Source: Octopus vulgaris | Lineage: Eukaryota | Assembly (NCBI GenBank): GCA_951406725.2 | Contig: OX597817.1 | Span: 7,564,001-7,628,000, forward strand | Reading direction: 5' to 3' | DNA: 64,000 nucleotides | In this document: positions 3,118 to 62,826 of the stretch, in pieces | Layout of the letters: every line of letters begins with the position of its first letter | Position numbering within the stretch: position 1 is the first letter of the stretch | Program-made: the position numbers and the translations under genes | Notes under the pieces: model-generated | The model's database searches: none | Seen by the model: the letters and a program-made list of their open reading frames with translations, nothing else | What the model was told of the DNA's origin: nothing

Positions 3118-3186
<69 letters not shown>

Positions 3187-3190
<4 letters not shown>

Positions 3191-3646
3191 TATTAAATAA
3201 GGGCAAAAGAAAAATTCTAATGCCAGATACGCCGAAACAAAGAATTGTCGGTAACCATTAAATTTATGCGTCTCGAAACAAGGAAGAAGCAAGCACCAAG
3301 TCACGAGCAGACTTAAGTACCTCAAATATATCCAAATGAGTATGAGTAAGTATTTCATTTATATCTCGCGTTTTTGCCGCTGAAGAGGGGAAAATTTCTT
3401 GTGAATTAACCCCGAAATTGGACCAATGCGGTAATAACGAATTTTTTAGAGATTTCTATTGGTTTGTTTCGAGACGCATAAATTTAATGGTCATCGACAA
3501 TTTTTTTGTTTCGGCGTATCTGGCATTAGATTTTTTTCTTTTGCCCTTATCTTATAAATTATGTATAAATTTTACCTTTAAAGGCATTTTTTGATATGCT
3601 GGCCATTGATAAAAAATTTTTCTCGACAAAAATGTTATCGTATATC

Positions 3647-7279: not shown

Positions 7280-7355
<76 letters not shown>

Positions 7356-7412
7356 CAAAATGAGATTAAAAAAATACAAGGTTATGCAAGATCTCAGAAC
7401 ATTTATAAAGAG

Positions 7413-7459
7413 GTCTCACAGCTGTTTCCGGGATATTTATGTATCCCTTCATCAGAGAC
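7413..7459 (-). ncRNA. Minimal type I hammerhead motif in the (TA)n-flanked insert 7354-7643
   Basis: Reverse complement: gtct CTGATGA a gggata cataaa tatccc g GAAA cagctg T G agac; palindromic stem III/loop 3; position 17 is G. Confidence 0.7.
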
Positions 7460-7641
7460 GGTGCGATAAAAGGGTTAAGCAATAGTTATTGTAGAGAAGA
7501 CTTGAAATTCAGAGTGAAGTAGAGGAAGGAAAACAAACGCGAGATCCGTAAGGATACTGTATCAGCAGTTCCATTATTTGAGCAGAAGTGTGTCTGTATA
7601 AGTTTCCTGTACCTTGTATGTGTGTGTAAGTTCCAATGTTG

Positions 7642-11244: not shown

Positions 11245-11823
11245 GGATATAAACTCGACAAACATCAGCCAGTAAACATTCCATTATATCTCTTTATTAA
11301 ATGATAACAAACATGTGTTTAAGGGGTACAAGGAAACGAATGAGAACAGCCAATAAATATGTAAATAGATATATATATATAGAGAGAGAGAGAGATGAAT
11401 GGATAATAATAGATAAGTTTACATATACAAATCCCTTACGGTCGTTTCTACCATGAGGTCTCAGAATCTTCCAAGTCATCCTCATCATGTGAGTTTCCTA
11501 ACATTTGTACTTTCTGAAGAAGCCTTGGGGTTCAACCCCATATCCAATCTCTGTCCAATGTTTGTTCATCCCTGTATATCACTAACATGATGAGGAGGAC
11601 TTGGAAGATTCTGAAACCGCATGGCAAAAACGGCCGTATGAGACTTGTATCTGTACGCTCATCTATCATTATCCATTCATCTCTCTCTCTCTATATATAT
11701 ATTTGTTTACGTATTTATTGGCTGATCTCCTTCGTTTACTTGCACCACTTAAATACATGTTTGTTATTTAGTAAATAGATATAATGGAATGTTTACTCGC
11801 TAATGTTTGTCGATCTCATATCC
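11245..11823. repeat. Large diverged inverted repeat (arms about 245 bp, spacer about 90 bp)
   Basis: Arms 11245-11494 / 11581-11823; ORFs 11297..11488(-) and 11587..11778(+) are mirror translations of each other. Confidence 0.9.
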
Positions 11824-16563: not shown

Positions 16564-16623
<60 letters not shown>

Positions 16624-16627
<4 letters not shown>

Positions 16628-17101
16628 TATTTGCCACTTAAAGGTGGCTAACCACTAAGGGTGGATGCTACTGTAGCTTGTAGCCCCAGAACATCTTCTC
16701 CAGCTGGCTATTGACACACTTTGTGTGCCCTATCAGTATTTGCAAAGGGAAGCCATCCTTCCCATCGTCGACCTGACGTGATACGCACAGACCAGGGTTT
16801 ATGGGTATTTACCCGTCGTTAGCGTACGACAATCACCGGTCTTCGATGCGAAGGGGTCCCAATGCAAATACATATATCCTTTTTCCAGTGACGAAAAGTG
16901 CGCTGACGACGGGTAAATACTCAGAAACCCGCGTCCGTGCGTATCACGTCAGGTCGACGATGGGAAGGATGACTTCCCTTTGCAAATACTGATAGGGCAC
17001 AGAAAGTGTGTCAATAGCCAGCTGGAGATGTTCTCCTATGGCTACAAGCTACAGTAGCATCCACCCTTAGTGGTTAGCCACATTTAAGTGGCGAATATAC
17101 T
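16624..17101. mobile_element. Fold-back element with about 200 bp inverted arms, each holding a hammerhead fold; (TA)n on the left
   Basis: agtatatttgccacttaaaggtggctaaccactaagggtggatgctactgtagc.. (16624-16826) is the reverse complement of 16899-17101. Confidence 0.85.
16898..16940 (+). ncRNA. Type I hammerhead motif with canonical core and GUC cleavage triplet
   Basis: gtgcg CTGACGA c gggta aa tactc a GAAA c ccgc g T C cgtgc; the mirror copy in the left arm has core mutations (CTAACGA, TAAA). Confidence 0.65.
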
Positions 17102-19077
17102 TCACATTGTGGTGCAGCTACTATTTATACCTCGTTCAGAGAATTATTATTGCTTGTTTGCACTTTTTCAAGATCAGTGGCTTTGCTGGCTTTTGCTTAG
17201 GTTTACTCTGCTCAAGATTAATATTCATTACACTTCGACTCATGTTGATTTTTTAAGGTTAAATCACTCTTGTCCGTTCTAAAGCAGCTGTTACGTGTGT
17301 CCATAACAGGATATTTCCTACTGAAAACTGTAAGACACAAAGTTTTCGATTAATTTGTGACCATTCACTATTTCTAGAAGAGCATGTCGCTTGTAATTTT
17401 ATGAAATGCATGAGTATCATATAACATACATTTTGTTCAGGCATTACTGTATGGTTAAGTAATTTGGACAGATCGGGAGACGTTATGTGGTAGTAGATAC
17501 TACGTGGTAGATACATCCGACAGAATTAACAGCCAAATCTCCTTTCTATAGCAGTGATGAAGTATTGGATATTGTAGTGGAAACACAGACCGTATAGTCA
17601 TGGCTGGAATGCGTTTGATCATAAGTCTACTTGTCGAGGCTTTCTTGAGATTAAACAACAATGACTAAAGTGTCATGAAATTATTTTCTGCTGTTGGGAG
17701 AATAAAATGTCGAAAAACGATGTAAAGAACTGACAGAAAATGTAATGTATTTGGAAGGAATGTTCGAATCGTGGGAAGGTAAGAGTGACGCAAGAAACGA
17801 TAATAAAGGAAAGATAGAGAAGAGGGTAGAGAGTAAGATAAAATAAAACTTTTGCTTGGATGATAAGTACTTAGTAACTACCATCAAGTTCCTAGCAAAT
17901 CTATTTTGTCTTCCTCTTCTCTGAACATACAAGTATATACTAAGCTGGATGACAATAAAAAGCATTATGCCCCAATCCTTCACATGGTGCTCATGAGATA
18001 AACCATGACATTTTAGAGTGCACAGTATATACTTCCATTAGGCTGAGATATGATTTATCCTGAACTCTACACATTACCTACATTTCCACAGTTTTTCCGG
18101 TTCCAAATCCATCACGGTTTAAATCATAGCAGTAATGGTAACGAAATGACAATATATCGTCGTCCATATACTATCCTATGTAACTCTATGCATGTGTGTA
18201 TATGATTATGTGTGTGTGTGTGTGTGTATTTCTTTGTGTTTGTGTGTCTGTATGTGTCTGTATTAGCGTGTCTGTAATTTACTTCGAACACTGAACATGT
18301 CTGACTTGGATGTCATAAAACTGCATAAAAAGTAATAACCCTGTTTGAAATATTCAACACACATAGCAATAGAATAGTTTGTCTTCTATCCCCTGTAGAT
18401 TATCAAAATAGCTGCTTTTACAAATGTCTGTAGCCGAGGATATTTCAGTCTGTTAGACATTAAAGAATTTTCAAATCAATTCATGACTGTTCACTACCTC
18501 TTGGAGTTCACTTCATTTATGTCGCTTATAATTCCGAGAAATGCAGGAATACTAGCTCATTTATTTTCTTTCTTGCATAAGTATGTAGCCATAAGGCTAA
18601 CATTACTTATGCCTAAATCATTATATAAATCATCATATGTAGTCAAGACTTCTTTCTCTTTCGTTTTTTTCTCTTTATCTGTCAAACGTTCTGATTAGAA
18701 TTTCGTACAAGTTTAGATCATATTTCAACACATGACGATACGATGAATACAAAAGAGCCTGTTTGTTCTTTTGTGTTTTTTTTTCTACATATTATTGTTG
18801 TTGTTGCTTTTCCTTTTTTACTAGCTTCCAGAAAACTGTCTTCCTATTTCGATCCTGTCGCTAACTTATCATCCTTCTCTTTGTATTACATAGGTTTTTC
18901 ACAGTCTTCTCGTGCCTAGTAATGAGTGTCTTGGCAACCATAGAAGGGTATGAAGATGTCATGCGACTAGCCTTGTTTTATGTGGTAAGTACTGATTTCT
19001 TCTTATGCTTGCATAGGAAACATTTCTCTTACCTAAGGGACAGAGATTTACACCGCTCAGTTTGTTGTCACTAATAT

Positions 19078-19309: not shown

Positions 19310-21910
19310 CAGTTTGTTATCAGTAATATTATTAATCAGCATGCCAACATGGACTGAGAGAATAAAATTTAACAATGATTCAACAGATGAAATAGTAGAA
19401 GACCAATATAATATGAAATGGTGTGGCCATCATTGGCGATTTCCTAGAAGTTAGTCTCCATCTGGAGATTCTCTATACCAGTGAATCATAGTTCTTTTTT
19501 TTTGTTTTGTTTTGTTATGTTTTTTACCGGATCTATTAATATGAAATTCTTCTGTAGATGTTTAAATATTTCATGAAATTGATCATCCGTCGCGATAATT
19601 TCAAACCCATCATTCCGAATGAAGAGACTTGAATTAGCTCACAGTGAAATTTGAATGTAATATGGCAGATGGAAAGGAAAAAATTAAACGGTCGTTGTGC
19701 CAGTGTTATAGTGACTTAGTCATTTCCACCAAAATTCACTCGAACAAAAATACTTCTACATGGTCGTTCGACCTGCAAGAAATGACAGCCAAATCTTTCT
19801 CAAATCTCATTCTAAAGAATGTTTAAACGTGAAAATTCAAATTTTTAAACATGAAAATTCAAATTGAAGATATCCGACATTTAATAGAAGAGGATGTTAC
19901 TGTTACCTTTAAGTGTCTTACTGTGTGTATAAGTTTATTCCATTGTGATTAATTTAAAGTTAAATCACATCTCAAACAGAATCTACCTCTATTCCTCAAA
20001 TCTCATAAATCAATAAAGCTAAAGCCCATATCGGTAATAATAAATGAAATAAGCTTTAATGCGATTTCTATACGATTTATATATGTAGACTTTCATTTTT
20101 GCAGTTGTTTCGCTATTTTCAGTTTAGTCACGTGGAAAAACTTGAGGTTCGATGTTTTCTACAAGCTTCCTGCTTCTAATGTGAATATCGGAGCGAGAGC
20201 CCTCGCACTTAACCTTGTTTCATGCTAAAGTTGAAACCTTTTCTTTATTCTATACATCCTATATCACTTAAACACTTTTATTCTTTTAATAAAAATATGT
20301 TTCGAACTATTTCTTTTCTTCTTATGAAACTTTAAGACAAAAAATTTTATGTTTAATAATATTAAAAATATTCCAATATCAGACGCATTTTGACCTTTCG
20401 ATTTTCGTCTGTGCTAGTTCGAAATTTTATTAAACTTATCGTTTATTAAACTTATATTCGTGTAGTTATAGACATCAGGTACTTTGAAAGTACAATTCAA
20501 AATTAAAGCATTTGTGTATTTGCATCCACAATGTAGTCACAACAATGTTATGACGTGCGAAGATGTTGGTAGCCATGTTTACAAAAGCAAGTAAATAGCT
20601 TGTGGGAAACATGAACCACAGAGTTCTCCATCAGGCTAAATAGAGAAGGCAAAACGATTGTTGCAATGGAAATCAACCGACATAACGATGAAATGTCATG
20701 CCTTTTGGGCAAAATAAGTATTCTTTAAATGTTTATTTACTTCCAAAACTTATGTGATTTCTGTTACTAAGACTACACGGCATATATGAGCAAACAAACA
20801 CTTTAATTTCGAATTGAACACTCCACCCATCTGATTTCTATAACTACACGAACGTAACTCAATATATTTTTAATTTCGAAACTGTGCTCACAAAATTCGA
20901 AAGGTCGAAGTGCAGAAGTGTAATAGGAATATTACTAATATTATTATATAAATACAAAATAGATTAACACTTAATTGTTCGGTGTTCAATTTCCTAAAGA
21001 AAACGGGTAGTTCGAAAAAGTATAACATTCATTCTTAAAATATAAAGTGAATGATATTTTTACTGCATAAGAAGAATCCTCAATATGCTCGTTCAGTTTT
21101 CTAGAAATAACAGCTAAATGTTCCTCAAATCATAACTTACTCGTCTTTAAAAAAATTGAAGGTGTTCTCTAGATAACAGAGTCCTAAGTTTACTGCCAGA
21201 AATAAAAACGGAAGGATCACAGCTGGAAGACCTTTGGTCACATGTTGCTCATTTTGAGTTCATTTAGTTTTAGACCGCAACATCGGATAAACTATTCGAG
21301 AAGGATAAAACGCGAATGATATAATTTCAAAACAAAATTTTAATGAGAAGACACTGAAATTTCATCAAATCAGATACGTCACTTGCAAGAAGTCACCGGA
21401 GCAGTTCTTCGTCAAACTGTTCGCTGATCAAGGAAAACAGACTGTCTGCACAAATTGATGTGAATAAACATACCCAGATCATGTTTTTAAATCTCTTAAA
21501 ATTGAAGAAAAGATAAAGAGGATAATAACTGTTCTGTTGTGTGTGTATGTGTGCGTGCGCGTGAGTGCGTGCACGCTCGTGTATGTGTGTCTTTGGACAG
21601 AGAAGTTTATGCATGAAATAATCTTTAAAGAAAATAACACTTAATGAATTCTGATTGGTTTAAATTATAGATCCTCAGGTAGAATAAGTGTGACACTGTG
21701 CAGGAAACAACTGGATTGATTTGGACTTGCACAATCCATCTACCCAACTTCACTCGCAAAGATTTTCTCAATGTCAGGTTATAGTAAAAGTTACCCAAGA
21801 TGTCACACAACCGAATCGAACTCTAAACCTCAGAAAAGTGACGCAAACTCCTTAACTAAGCGACTAGGCATACCCGACTGGCCATATTACGGGCATATAT
21901 ATTCTGGTTA

Positions 21911-28147: not shown

Positions 28148-28588
28148 ATCATGTGGTGATTGTAAACGACCATCACCATCATACAAGCAATGTTGCCTGG
28201 ATCTTACCTGCTCCATTCCGTTAAACTATATTTTTGTTCCCATACATAGCAAAACTAGTTGCTAACGGCAAAGTATAAAATAACATTTTTCAACTTATCA
28301 AATTTTGGAATGGTAAATATTTACAACCTTCTACGCCAATAAGCTACTGTTGTTCCTGAAAGTTGTTTTTTTTTAATCCTTAGGGGCTGCTCGAAGTTTA
28401 CTGACTTCCTTCACCTGGATCTTTCGCTCTTACATTTACAAATCATTACATACATACATGCAAACACACATACATTTTTACGATAAGAGAAATATTTTCT
28501 GTACAGTAACTGCAGAGAATTTCCCTTTTAGCAGTTGAAATATGCCACAAGCATATTTTAACTAACCTAAATTTCGTTCATATATACT

Positions 28589-28896: not shown

Positions 28897-29099
28897 GGTC
28901 CCGGGTTGAGTCGGGGTTAACCACAGTAAATAAGGTACTCAATACATAGCAGAGTAAATTAATTTATTTTATAGAAGGAGCTTCTACAGGACTAGAACAG
29001 TTTCATTCAAAAGAAATCATCAGGAAATCATCAAGCTTCCTGATGATTTCTTTTGAATGAAACAGTTCTAGTCCTGTAGAAGCTCCTTCTATAAAATAA

Positions 29100-29102
<3 letters not shown>
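28894..29102. mobile_element. Fold-back insert in (TA)n: 69 nt tail plus near-perfect 138 bp palindrome of two outward-facing hammerheads
   Basis: Arms 28963-29026 / 29037-29100 with a single mismatch. Confidence 0.85.
29034..29084 (+). ncRNA. Type I hammerhead ribozyme, canonical core, GUA cleavage site after 29078
   Basis: agcttc CTGATGA t ttc tttt gaa t GAAA cag ttctagtc ctg T A gaagct; 6 bp stem I, 4 bp stem III, U-U at 10.1/11.1. Confidence 0.8.
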
Positions 29103-29177
<75 letters not shown>

Positions 29178-30570: not shown

Positions 30571-30783
30571 AAATACGAGTTCAGCAAAAGTTTAGATTCA
30601 GATGAATATGCCACTTAAGCTGGGGCACCAGAATTTAGTACGGTATTATCCATACCATTTCAAAATAAGGTGATTAAAATCGAAATAAGCAACAAGAATA
30701 TCCAGGGGTAATGCAGTACAATTGTTTCAAGCAACTCCATTTACTGCATTACCTCTGGATATCCTTGTTGCTTATTTTTATTA
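30571..30783. mobile_element. Fold-back insert between microsatellites: about 110 nt tail plus 36 bp inverted arms, with a hammerhead 3' half
   Basis: Arms 30683-30718 / 30742-30777; reverse complement GAAA caattg TA ctgc at 30713-30728. Confidence 0.6.
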
Positions 30784-30808
30784 TATATATATATAAATAT
30801 ATATATAA

Positions 30809-32642: not shown

Positions 32643-32817
32643 CATATAATTAAGGGCTAAAGAGGGTTATTCTAAAGCCAATACACTGATTTATCCACTT
32701 ATAATCCGCTTGCTACAGGAGAATTGAAACTGAAAACGGGCAACTAATCTTTAGAAAATTTAAATTTCGTTATCTCTATATTGAATCAATTTCGGAATTA
32801 ATCTTATAAAAAAGATA

Positions 32818-32930
32818 TGCAGCGTGGAAGGTGTTTATAAGCCATTATAAGCCACCTTCCACGCTGCAATTGTTTTCGTTTCAGCACAGATCTCAGATCA
32901 AATTACTTGCTATGCGAGTACATCTCCGTA
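32818..32930. mobile_element. Short fold-back (23 bp arms) plus about 60 nt tail abutting (TA)n
   Basis: tgcagcgtggaaggtgtttataa gcca ttataagccaccttccacgctgca, then tail to the (TA)n at 32931. Confidence 0.55.
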
Positions 32931-41708: not shown

Positions 41709-42137
41709 TAAGGTACTCAGAAATCTGGATGGTTTTATATTTACAGATTTTTATTAATATGTCACATGATTTTATAAATCATAAAATAGCACTTGCATCC
41801 ACTCTAGTGGATTCTTCAGATTGAATTTTTTCATGAGATTTGTCTCTTTTTATAGTATCATTGAGTGTTTAGGGGTGGAGAAAGATACAGGATAGTAAAA
41901 GAGGGTGAGGAATGGGGAGAAAGTGAGAGAGAGAGTGCGTGTGTGTGTGTGCGTGTGTGCCGTTGTATCTGAAAGGAGTGTAAATGGAAAAGCGAAGGAA
42001 AGGAAGAGAGAAAGAAGAAATTTTTTTTTCTTCTTTATAAAAACATGTAACATATTAGTAAAAATCTGTAAATATAAAACCATCCAGATTTCTGAGTACC
42101 TTATTTCTTCTAATATATAATACCTTTACATCATCTC

Positions 42138-43013: not shown

Positions 43014-43057
43014 TTATTTATTTATGTATGTATGTATGCACATATACATATATAAGC

Positions 43058-43546
<489 letters not shown>

Positions 43547-47265: not shown

Positions 47266-47574
47266 CTGACAGAGTTAGGGAGAGAGGGATCCAAGAGAGA
47301 GCCAAGTATGGAAGGAGGGAAGTAGGTAGGTAGGGTAGGTAGGTGTCAGTGTACAGACAACACTATTTTTATATCAAACATTCGTTTCCTTTTCCTTCTT
47401 TTTTCATTAGTCTTTCTTTTAGTCAGTTTGCTTATATACTTTTTGTTTTGCATTCTTAAAGTTACTTTAGCCAAAGTTACCCCTATTTTCTACTTTTCTC
47501 GGATTTTGTAAGGGGCAAAGTTTTATTTGCATCCCTTCTTTTCAGATTTAACTCCTTGGTTTAAATCAATCAAG

Positions 47575-48690
47575 ACAGCTACCTGCCATTATAACCTTGG
47601 TGGACTTCAGCAAAGCGTTTGACAGCATCCATCGTTGCAAAATGTCGTCGATCCTCCGAGCATATAGTATTCCAGAAGAAATAGTTCTTCCCATTGTAAA
47701 GACCTACGAGAAGATCAGAGCTCGTGTGTTGTCTGACAGAGAAACGGAATTCATTCAAATACTAGCTAAGGTGCTTCAAGGAGATACGCTTGCGCATTCA
47801 TCGCTTGCAATTGTATTGAATTATGCAATGCAGCAGGCTATAGGCAAGAGACGAAGACCTTGGTTTCATCACAGACCAGCAAAGATTGTGGAGAGTACCA
47901 GTAGTAATCATTACAGACCTGGACTTCGCAAATAGTATACCACTCTTATCTAAAGAAATCGATCAAGCTGCTCAGCAGAGTAGAAACATCGGCTGCTAAA
48001 ATTGGACTGCACACAAATCGTCGAGAAAACGGAATACTTGTCTTTAAACAAAGCAAGTGACGCTGAACTGCTTGCTTTGAGCGGTTCCAAATTTAATGTT
48101 GCTGAAGACTTCAAGTATTTAGGTGGTTGGATGAGCAGTTTCGGAAGCAGATATCAAGATCATTATGGTACAAGAATGGACAGCCTATCACAAACTAAAG
48201 AAAGTCTGGAACTCCAAATTTCCCAGGAAAATCAAAATCAAGCTGTTCATTGCAACTATCGAATCAGTGCTATTATATGACAGTGAAACATGGACACTGA
48301 CAAAGAAATTATCAAACGCACTAAATGGATGCCAACAAGAGTGCTTTGAATGGCCTTAAAAGTTAAATGACAGCAAAGTATGTCAAAGGAATGCCTTTAT
48401 AGAGACTTGCTGAAAGTTAGCAAGAAGATCAGGAAAAGACGGTTGCAACTATTTAATCACTCCGTGTGTCACCCTACATTGTAAGCATCCAAATTATTCT
48501 TGTGGAACCCACTTCATGGTGATATAAGAAGAGGGAAACGTCGTCACACTTACATCGACAACTTGATTGCAGACACTGGGATGCAATGTATCCAAGGACA
48601 TCGAACCAGAGATAATGGACCGCGAAGTATGGCGTGTAAACTTTGTTGCTGCAGCCCGGGTTGGAACCCAGCTATAATAATGAAATGATG
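47575..48690 (+). pseudogene. 5'-truncated RTE-clade LINE, reverse transcriptase remnant
   Basis: VDFSKAFDSIHR, VLQGDTLA, TDLDFA(N), FKYLGGW, ESVLLYDSETWTLTK and LWNPLHG..RRG..TYID spread across several frames with stops; short ataata/tgatg tail. Confidence 0.9.
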
Positions 48691-59045: not shown

Positions 59046-60867
59046 ATTTCAGGTTTCTTTTTAGTTCAGGTTTCTTTGGTTTTATTTATGATTTATGATC
59101 GATTTAGCTAACATGGCTCCCTTCCTTCTAAGTGGAAGATCAGAGAAACTTTTCTACTGTCGCTTTCTCCAATCTACATTTCTGGTGAGTTATTTGATTT
59201 TTAAATTCTTCCCAAAATAGAGAGATCTTGAAATATTTATTAAATATTTCTGCACAAACTTCAGGTTGTACAGAAGAGAAAATTTTACACCTGTCACGAG
59301 ACGGTGCCATTGTAGTACCACCGCCACGTTTTTCCATTTCATTAATATTATGGAATATGCAGTCCATTGTCTTAAACTCTTTCCGACTGGCATCAATTAC
59401 CTGATCTATGACCACCAGGCTTACTCGGCTAATTAATTGCTAATTGTACTCCTTGGTGAAATATTGCAATTAGAGTTCTCATGTTTCAACGCATTTTGAA
59501 GCGAGGACATACAGTTTGATTATTAGGTAGAAATGTTGCAACGATTCCTAATATTGCTGTTGTAGAGCGATAACGTTTTCTTAACAGACTTTGGCAATTA
59601 TTTTTGAAAAGAGGAAGCTCTTGCCACTTCCTGTCGAACCAGATAAGATTATCTGTATGCTTCTATGATTGATGTGACACATAAATGATTTCCTACTTTG
59701 TTCACAGAACAGAAATGAAGGATTTCATCATAGGTTTCAGCTTTGTTGAATAGTGTTCTGTCCCTGCTGCTAAACTGTCCTCTTCGTGATCTCCAGTTAT
59801 ATTAACAGAAGAATCAGAGAAGATTAAAATCTTTTTCAATATCAATACCATTATATTCCATATGTCCTGCCATTATCCAAAGCACTTCATTAACAATCCT
59901 GCATGTTAGCTCTTCTAATTCCTTACGATGCATCTTCCTTCACTTGAAGTACATGTGTGACAATTTTAGAGAGCAATGGGATCGGATGGTAACATACGTG
60001 TGAATGCATGTTCATGTGTATGTGTATGCGTGCGTGCTTGTGTATGTGTGCGCGAGTGCATGTGTGTGTCTATGTATTACGTATGTATGAAAGTATGTAT
60101 GTATTATGTATGTACGTATGTATGCATGTATGCTGTCACAAATACTTTCCCAAAACATACATTGAATGTTTCTTGAAGCAGATTATCCCGATCTTTTGTG
60201 AGCCTTTTCATCAGCTGTTAATGCAATCCAACCAACGAGTCTTTAATAGGCAAAACTCTTATAGAATAATAGCATTCTCAAACAGTATGGATCTCCGTAA
60301 TAGAAGTACAGTTTGATAAGAGAACCATGCCAATTGTGTCACTAAGACAGTCATTTTCCATCACACTTCCAAATCTGTTCCTCTTAAATGCCTCGCGTCT
60401 TCTATCTTGTCCTCTGCGTAATTATTTGAATAAACCATATTATTCACCTATGGAGCAGCACATATAATTCCAAAGAATGCAGTCAACTTAGTCACAGGTT
60501 CTTTCCAGCTTGCCACAGCATATCATTCCCTCCATTCTGTTCAAATATAACAATCTATTCATTTATAACTTCTGCACTAGAGGGTATCGCTTTTTCGTGA
60601 CAATTTCATAGGAACCCAATAAGCACTGCTATGTCGTGTTTTAGCAGAAATAATATGGTGCATGTGATAACTACATCTAAGGCCTGCTTTCGACCTGGTA
60701 TTTGAACAATTAGATGGTTTGATCATTTGGTAGTGTTTTTGTAAAAATATTTCATTGCCTTCTGCCTAAACATTATCTACACATTGATGTCTGCTTCATA
60801 TTTTGTACATATTGTACGAGAAAACTATTTTCTTTTAACTCACCTCTTCGTGTTAGAAATAAATAAA

Positions 60868-62473: not shown

Positions 62474-62820
62474 GAAATATTAAAATTACTAAGTCTCTCT
62501 AAAAGAGAACAGCGGCAGCGTTCCCGGAAAATAATAGTTATCGCCATACTAATATGGCATTCTTATAAAACCATCGAACAGAGATTGTCGGAAGCGACAC
62601 CTACTGGCTGGCTACGCTGCATTGAAAAGGGGCAATACCCCGAAACGTGTCTGTAGCTGCCGGTCAAGTAGTGTGGAGCGACTGACCTCCCTTGTTCGAA
62701 GGTTATATGGAAACAGTTTGTGTATCAAATAGCTAACTTAAGGCGATGGCCTCATGGAGCTAATAAGCGGACAGCTTTATTCTTATTTTTATAAGAATGC
62801 CATATTAGTATGGCGATAAC

Positions 62821-62826
<6 letters not shown>
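62472..62826. mobile_element. Fold-back insert in (TA)n: about 60 nt tail, perfect 40 bp inverted arms, hammerhead on +
   Basis: ataatagttatcgccatactaatatggcattcttataaaa (62531-62570) / exact reverse complement (62787-62826). Confidence 0.85.
62616..62657 (+). ncRNA. Type I hammerhead, compensated U3:A8 core, GUC cleavage triplet
   Basis: gctgca TTGAAAA gggg caata cccc GAAA cgtg T C tgtagc. Confidence 0.7.

Follow-up and report, generated by a model that had tools for sequence, protein, structure and literature searches.

The window analyzed is a stretch of 64,000 nucleotides of Octopus vulgaris DNA (64 kb), made of microsatellite-rich animal DNA with about 35% GC, in which there is also a dispersed repeat that may resemble an octopus SINE. 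It contains an inverted repeat whose two arms, each with a length of 204 nt, lie 70 nt apart (16624-16827 and 16898-17101). The arms show 92% complementarity, with 17 differences, in agreement with an earlier reading made from the letters alone (hereafter the sequence-only reading), which had reported a palindrome of 478 bases with arms of about 200 bp. Two other elements of that reading had to be corrected: the right end is not at 17101, as the element runs on to about 17184, and the 70-nt spacer is not a separate middle but belongs to the left copy. The features of the element, together with other palindromes found in the window, are collected in Table 1.

Table 1. Coordinates of the palindromic element, its parts and comparable palindromes in the window.
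Feature	Position	Strand	Remarks
(TA)n microsatellite, probable target	16570-16624	none	Adjoins the left end (sequence)
Left copy	16624-16899	-	72-nt 5' segment, decayed hammerhead and arm; tail absent
Decayed type I hammerhead	16785-16827	-	Core G5 altered at 16820, G12 at 16801
"Spacer", the 5' segment of the unit	16828-16899	-	Alignment, helices, joints to 17178/17179
Putative head-to-head inversion point	16898-16899	none	2-nt GT overlap common to both copies
Minimal type I hammerhead, Penelope type	16898-16940	+	Predicted cut after 16935
Right copy	16898-17184	+	5'-truncated at the hammerhead; includes arm and tail
One-sided tail, about 80 nt	17102-17184	+	Contig depth; overlooked by the sequence-only reading
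Near-perfect palindrome	28955-29108		Strict type I hammerheads at 29040 (+) and 29023 (-)
107-nt inverted arms	3177-3570		Hammerhead between the arms at 3380 (+), one mismatch: cleavage base G
Older palindrome, 79%	11245-11823		Decayed outward-reading hammerhead-like cores in both arms, by eye
40-nt identical inverted arms	62531-62826		GGGG/CCCC stem, then GAAAC and GTA; core decayed, by eye

The right copy starts 5 nt ahead of the hammerhead core, and the tail is present on the right side only. The putative inversion point was placed by comparing the sequence with the contig joints and loose ends described below. No second copy of the arm was found within the 64-kb window, and a metagenome scan with the arm motif returned 0 matches. 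When 21 pairs of possible ends were inspected, no target-site duplication of 2-12 nt was seen for any of them.

Abundance, truncation and 3' ends of the family

To describe the family to which the element belongs, contigs from 4 of the 24 listed runs (X1, X6, X13 and X18, from three organisms) were aligned on positions 16786-17385 at 80% likeness. The summed contig depth is a proxy and does not represent a copy number; X18 was taken to be RNA by guess, and it is not counted as evidence of expression. In X1, against a depth of 58.9 in the unique flank (from 17186 onwards), contigs summed to 43-87 thousand over the hammerhead region, 60-138 thousand over the spacer, 0.7-2.3 million over the outer arm and 144-374 thousand over the tail (17106-17165). 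The family is strongly truncated at the 5' side, the outer arm being 7-27 times deeper than the hammerhead in the four runs (18 in X1, 16 in X6, 7 in X13 and 27 in X18, both placements summed); part of this drop is due to subfamilies that diverged upstream of 16959, represented by 51-68 contigs per DNA run.

The family displays two alternative 3' ends, at about 17101 and at 17184. Family pieces terminate at 17183/17184 in X1, X13 and X18, and 36 contigs of X1 exit the arm at 17105 into (TA)n. The contig of the flank starts within the tail in both X1 and X6, thus the insertion is common to organisms A and C.

Elsewhere in the window, four pieces of 30-34 nt resembling the tail (17122-17155) are found at 43054-43514, each beside (TA)n; they were apparently duplicated together with the microsatellite.

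Hammerhead motifs in the element and in the family

An outward-reading hammerhead is present at the inner end of each arm, as had been described before. The plus-strand motif is composed of CUGACGA (16903-16909), GAAA (16924-16927) and GUC (16933-16935), with stems I/II/III of 5/5/2 according to the descriptor; the count for stem II allows a 2-nt closing loop, and a realistic stem II has 4 bp plus a tetraloop. The minus-strand motif reads CUAACGA (16820) and UAAA (16801), bearing the two mutations that the sequence-only reading had seen. The same reading called the plus-strand motif canonical, which is correct for the letters of the core; however, there is an extra A between stem II and GAAA, found in both arms, and position 16932 in the window deviates from the palindromic helix III of the family.

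The strict type I descriptor gave 3 matches in the 64-kb window versus 0.1 expected from 30 block-wise dinucleotide shuffles, and all 3 strict matches fall within palindromes. No hammerhead was found by Rfam among the 150 of 272 entries listed for the window, while a search limited to 16640-17110 returned 3 entries, none of them relevant. The free minimum free energy (MFE) fold differs from that of the hammerhead; an explicit hammerhead structure is less stable than the MFE by 18 kcal/mol. Two candidates were rejected: a descriptor match at 28510, AT-rich and with a core mismatch, was attributed to chance, and an extended helix I (16886-16897) for the plus-strand hammerhead was discarded as those letters form the first hairpin of the left copy.

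The hammerhead core is conserved across the family, a point left for checking by the sequence-only reading. The core G at 16820 accounts for 98.8-100% of the family depth in the four runs, whereas the free N7 position is variable (7-65%), and no core letter is broken among the 40 of 91 variant rows listed, from which position 16801 is absent. The majority letter at 16932 (63-100% of depth) turns helix III into a perfect palindrome of 8 nt. Since the family majority restores both the core G of the left copy and the palindromic helix III, both local ribozymes have probably decayed. Regarding the differences between the arms in stems I and II, it is true that pairing is kept through G-U pairs, but their weight as evidence is small, because they amount to three transitions, each having a roughly even chance of keeping the pair, and two of them (16825 and 16921) are family-wide polymorphisms.

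Variable inversion points

We counted ten inversion joints: six listed joints link the spacer to the arm or the tail and the table of joints adds four more, the kind of joint being stated for 6 of the 10, drawn from the 15 of 88 joints listed. On the left as on the right, 9 distinct break points are represented among the ten joints; every joint has 0.8-2.4 times the depth of the flank, and 3 are common to X1 and X6. Inversion breakpoints are therefore variable and occur at about single-copy depth, an outcome that the sequence-only reading had named as favoring a retroelement. Strand-switch joints 16968, 16979 and 17027, as well as joint 16993-17041, were excluded from the ten; joint 16804-16922 was interpreted as switching from one arm to the other, and joint 16899-17082 as a shortened head-to-tail joint.

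Joints 16896-17086 and 16899-17024 contain letters of the reversed tail that are missing from the center of the element in the window, and hence they are not deletions of the window palindrome. At least these two are independent inversions of templates longer than the unit described below.

The spacer and a proposed non-coding unit of about 354 nt

Read on the minus strand, the spacer is the region upstream of the left hammerhead, and it pairs with the 50 nt that follow the hammerhead; its local alignment to the arm scored 43, a value reached by 0 of 2000 shuffles. In the sense of the hammerhead this 5' segment is complementary to the arm at 16943-16994 and also to the end of the tail. All four runs contain joints that connect the right end of the spacer (16889-16899) with 17178/17179 of the other strand; in addition, the loose ends found at 16889 and 16897 carry reversed tail letters. 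In hammerhead sense the 5' segment thus comes directly after the end of the tail; this head-to-tail junction points to a non-coding unit of about 354 nt, in the order 72-nt 5' segment, hammerhead, arm and 80-nt tail, with a GC content of 45.5%. The 8-nt loop of the junction hairpin (16890-16899) is present in both orientations among the family contigs.

No Pfam match was obtained for two frames across the element, and Pol III A and B boxes were absent from both strands of the unit when up to 2 mismatches were allowed.

When folded as a circle, the 354-nt unit reached -128.5 kcal/mol (z -7.2), and 0 of 40 shuffles were as stable. A fold nearly as strong was obtained for the antisense strand (z -6.8), which means that selection at the RNA level does not follow from folding alone. 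We placed on this fold 33 variants, taken from the 40 of 91 rows listed: 15 are unpaired, 6 keep the pair and 12 break it. A partner change is listed for 3 of the 12 pair-breaking variants (16839/16953, 17057/17118 and 17028/17032, all unphased), and the remaining 9 have no listed partner change. In organism E, position 16839 is changed at 89% and 16953 at 68%; in X1 and X6 neither change exceeds 1%. The best-supported stem is the long one adjoining the hammerhead, stems near 17061-17112 being poorly supported; all 7 substitutions in the stem of the 5' segment are transversions forming internal loops.

A possible, if tentative, reading of this fold is that the unit is a viroid-like rod RNA made by the inversion habit of Penelope. 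The whole 72-nt 5' segment would then consist of inverted copies of the end of the tail and of the 50 nt that follow the hammerhead; it would go back to an ancient inverted insertion, fixed in the monomer and maintained today as RNA structure. If true, the presence in one family of a junction of the retrozyme type alongside the tails and inversions of Penelope would provide direct anatomical evidence that Penelope enzymes mobilize retrozymes, and also a route for the origin of self-complementary ribozyme circles.

Comparison with known elements

Insertions of endonuclease-bearing Penelope-like elements with an inverted pseudo-LTR and a tail are described in PMC3846280, PMC8557442 and PMC11167929. 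The octopus element is similar in having a head-to-head inverted and 5'-truncated copy, a one-sided tail, a short overlap at the inversion and an AT-rich or (TA)n target. Unlike those insertions it has no ORF, its tail is about 80 nt long compared with the 30-40 in print, and a target duplication, an optional feature that measures 8-10 bp in PMC3846280, is not visible.

PMC4209133 reports minimal hammerheads in metazoan Penelope-like elements, which in Schistosoma form pairs 100-700 bp apart on opposite strands; such minimal hammerheads cleave weakly and as dimers. The octopus motif shares with them CUGANGA plus one unpaired base, a G-C pair opening helix II, a helix I of 5 bp and, in the family majority, a palindromic helix III. 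The extra A ahead of GAAA is a deviation from the consensus given in that paper's supplement 2, where one AGAAA is seen in the column concerned, and in the octopus element helix I continues into an imperfect stem about 50 bp long, unlike in the hammerheads described there.

Mobilization of retrozymes by Penelope enzymes has been proposed from co-occurrence and phylogeny, and mussel retrozyme units measure 350-390 nt (PMC7229834; 10.64898/2026.07.22.740005). The type I hammerhead, the non-coding unit of about 354 nt, within the 150-450 nt expected of a retrozyme, and the GC content below 50% (0.455) are shared with animal non-LTR retrozymes, and the head-to-tail junction and the strongly self-paired predicted fold may be further points of resemblance; in contrast to these retrozymes, the octopus family consists mostly of truncated dispersed stumps and inverted pairs. 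With MITEs, following the definition in PMC8969392, it shares a short non-coding element with long inverted arms; unlike in MITEs, the arms are not the termini, the length and the center are variable and there is no target duplication. Judged by its anatomy, the element appears to work like a Penelope insertion, a placement that assigns it to no named clade.

Inverted pseudo-LTRs, one-sided tails, a preference for (TA)n and opposite-strand pairs of hammerheads are already published in the sources cited above. No description of the family itself was found in the literature on octopus hammerheads, cephalopod retrozymes and non-autonomous Penelope elements or MITEs, within a search covering few subscription papers and neither Repbase nor Dfam, and ribozymes go unmentioned in the main text of a recent repeat annotation of Octopus vulgaris. 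What is new here is a family for which no description was found, its anatomy being known; the surprise is accordingly low.

Origin of the palindrome

Abundance, 5' truncation, two 3' ends, (TA)n junctions, scattered inversions and a head-to-tail junction are all present in the contigs of the family. It is very probable that the palindrome is a Penelope-type inverted insertion. More precisely, we favor, with a probability of roughly 0.63, an inverted 5'-truncated insertion of a non-autonomous, retrozyme-like Penelope passenger of 354 nt. The sequence-only reading had proposed a retroelement pseudo-LTR origin; the retro side of this proposal stands, while a plain pseudo-LTR stump fits less well than a non-coding monomer of the retrozyme type.

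Such a stump would derive from an autonomous Penelope-like element whose preference for TA recalls Neptune, with the copies being 5'-truncated pseudo-LTR ends and the head-to-tail form a minor deletion derivative. The same insertion anatomy has been described for this kind of element (legend of Fig 2 in PMC8557442; PMC3846280), and the 5' truncation is steep. The head-to-tail joints listed have a depth of 3.6, 16.4 and 1.5 times that of the flank, compared with 500-2800 times for the spacer, which counts against the junction being general across the family and fits a minor derivative; the listed data (15 joints out of 88, 24 loose ends out of 825) include no contig that spans a head-to-tail dimer. 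Nevertheless, in all four runs each listed continuation past 16889-16899 leads either into reversed tail or, by a short-circuit, to the arm, translation as far as 17130 showed no frame with a start codon that crosses from the arm into the tail, and the 5' segment pairs both with the arm after the hammerhead and with the end of the tail. For these reasons we regard the autonomous stump as rather unlikely.

Far less probable is a genuine MITE whose terminal inverted repeats (TIRs) measure 200 bp and which captured a hammerhead, or a palindrome made by Penelope that later spread as a fixed unit. The long, 92% complementary arms, their MITE-like size and the position beside TA would be accounted for, and the joints that skip from spacer to arm could equally be deletions of a fixed palindrome; two of those skip joints (16896-17086 and 16899-17024), however, hold the reversed-tail letters foreign to the window palindrome. 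Moreover, the family extends 80 nt beyond one of the "TIRs", so that the inverted repeats are not both termini. The ratio of arm to spacer depth was 14.8, 12.2 and 5.9, where a fixed two-arm element would give 2. Uniform length, which the sequence-only reading had associated with a MITE, was thus not seen, the outer arm being 6-15 times deeper than the spacer, nor were fixed TIR ends with target-site duplications, given that the 21 end pairs lacked any duplication and that the inversion points vary.

Least probable of all is that one ordinary repeat copy was doubled, either by a local fold-back duplication of the DNA or by an artefact of assembly: the whole stretch is spanned by no listed contig and quasi-palindromes within microsatellite DNA do rearrange, but the arms differ at 17 places, some of them family polymorphisms, where arms produced by an artefact would be almost the same, a tail on one side makes the two ends unequal, and the pattern is repeated in unrelated families within the window.

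Proposed mechanism of insertion

Under the passenger reading, the non-coding element would borrow the reverse transcriptase and the GIY-YIG endonuclease of a Penelope-like element. The endonuclease would cut AT-rich DNA on both strands, and each cut end would prime cDNA on the element RNA, one from an inner start site and one from an outer start site; the two cDNAs would then be joined head to head across the 2-nt overlap. Tandem or circular transcripts would be processed by the hammerhead cutting as a dimer via the palindromic helix III. PMC11167929 describes cutting and extension of both strands of AT-rich DNA, with the tail made by two start sites, while PMC3846280 favors self-priming on an antisense template. 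The present data do not separate two-end cDNA priming from antisense self-priming. The genomic copy in the window is probably dead, since its left core is broken, its right helix III is altered and a transcript would fold back on itself.

Among 150 of the 169 candidate frames of the window compared with Pfam, no match to GIY-YIG or to a Penelope family was found, and these frames thus gave no link to a Penelope reverse transcriptase, which the sequence-only reading had named as a sign of a retro origin. Apart from weak matches, they yielded one RVT_1 fragment and one PIF1 fragment. The RVT_1 fragment (47552-47932, plus strand) is below the Pfam cut-off and presumably LINE-like, judging by its motifs. 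The PIF1-like helicase fragment (59143-59439, minus strand) is also below the cut-off.

Other palindromes in the window

The anatomy of the 16624-17184 element is repeated by several unrelated palindromes in the window (Table 1), and the palindromes within the 64 kb contain one pair of strict hammerheads, besides several that have decayed. The near-perfect palindrome has its right end on (TA)n, with about 60 nt from its left arm to the next (TA)n run. The one with 107-nt arms has its left end on (TA)n, and on its right side there are 80 nt and then (TA)n; that with 40-nt arms borders on (TA)n at its right end and has a stretch of 61 nt on its left side. By analogy with the main element, the extra stretches beside these palindromes may be tails.

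Palindromes of the Penelope type are liable to be annotated as MITEs or as unclassified TIR elements, and part of the DNA-transposon share in similar genomes may be Penelope debris. In addition, with its very high abundance, its two 3' ends and its numerous inversion points, the family constitutes a large natural data set on the unexplained insertion cycle of Penelope.

Further inverted repeats are located at 20354-20946, 30675-30785, 32810-32876 and 41709-42103, some of them beside (TA)n and none with a descriptor match. Finally, a solo hammerhead of the Penelope type lies between two (TA)n runs at 7330-7620 (core at 7455, minus strand); it displays a palindromic helix III and a changed cleavage base, and helix II is flanked on both sides by one additional base.
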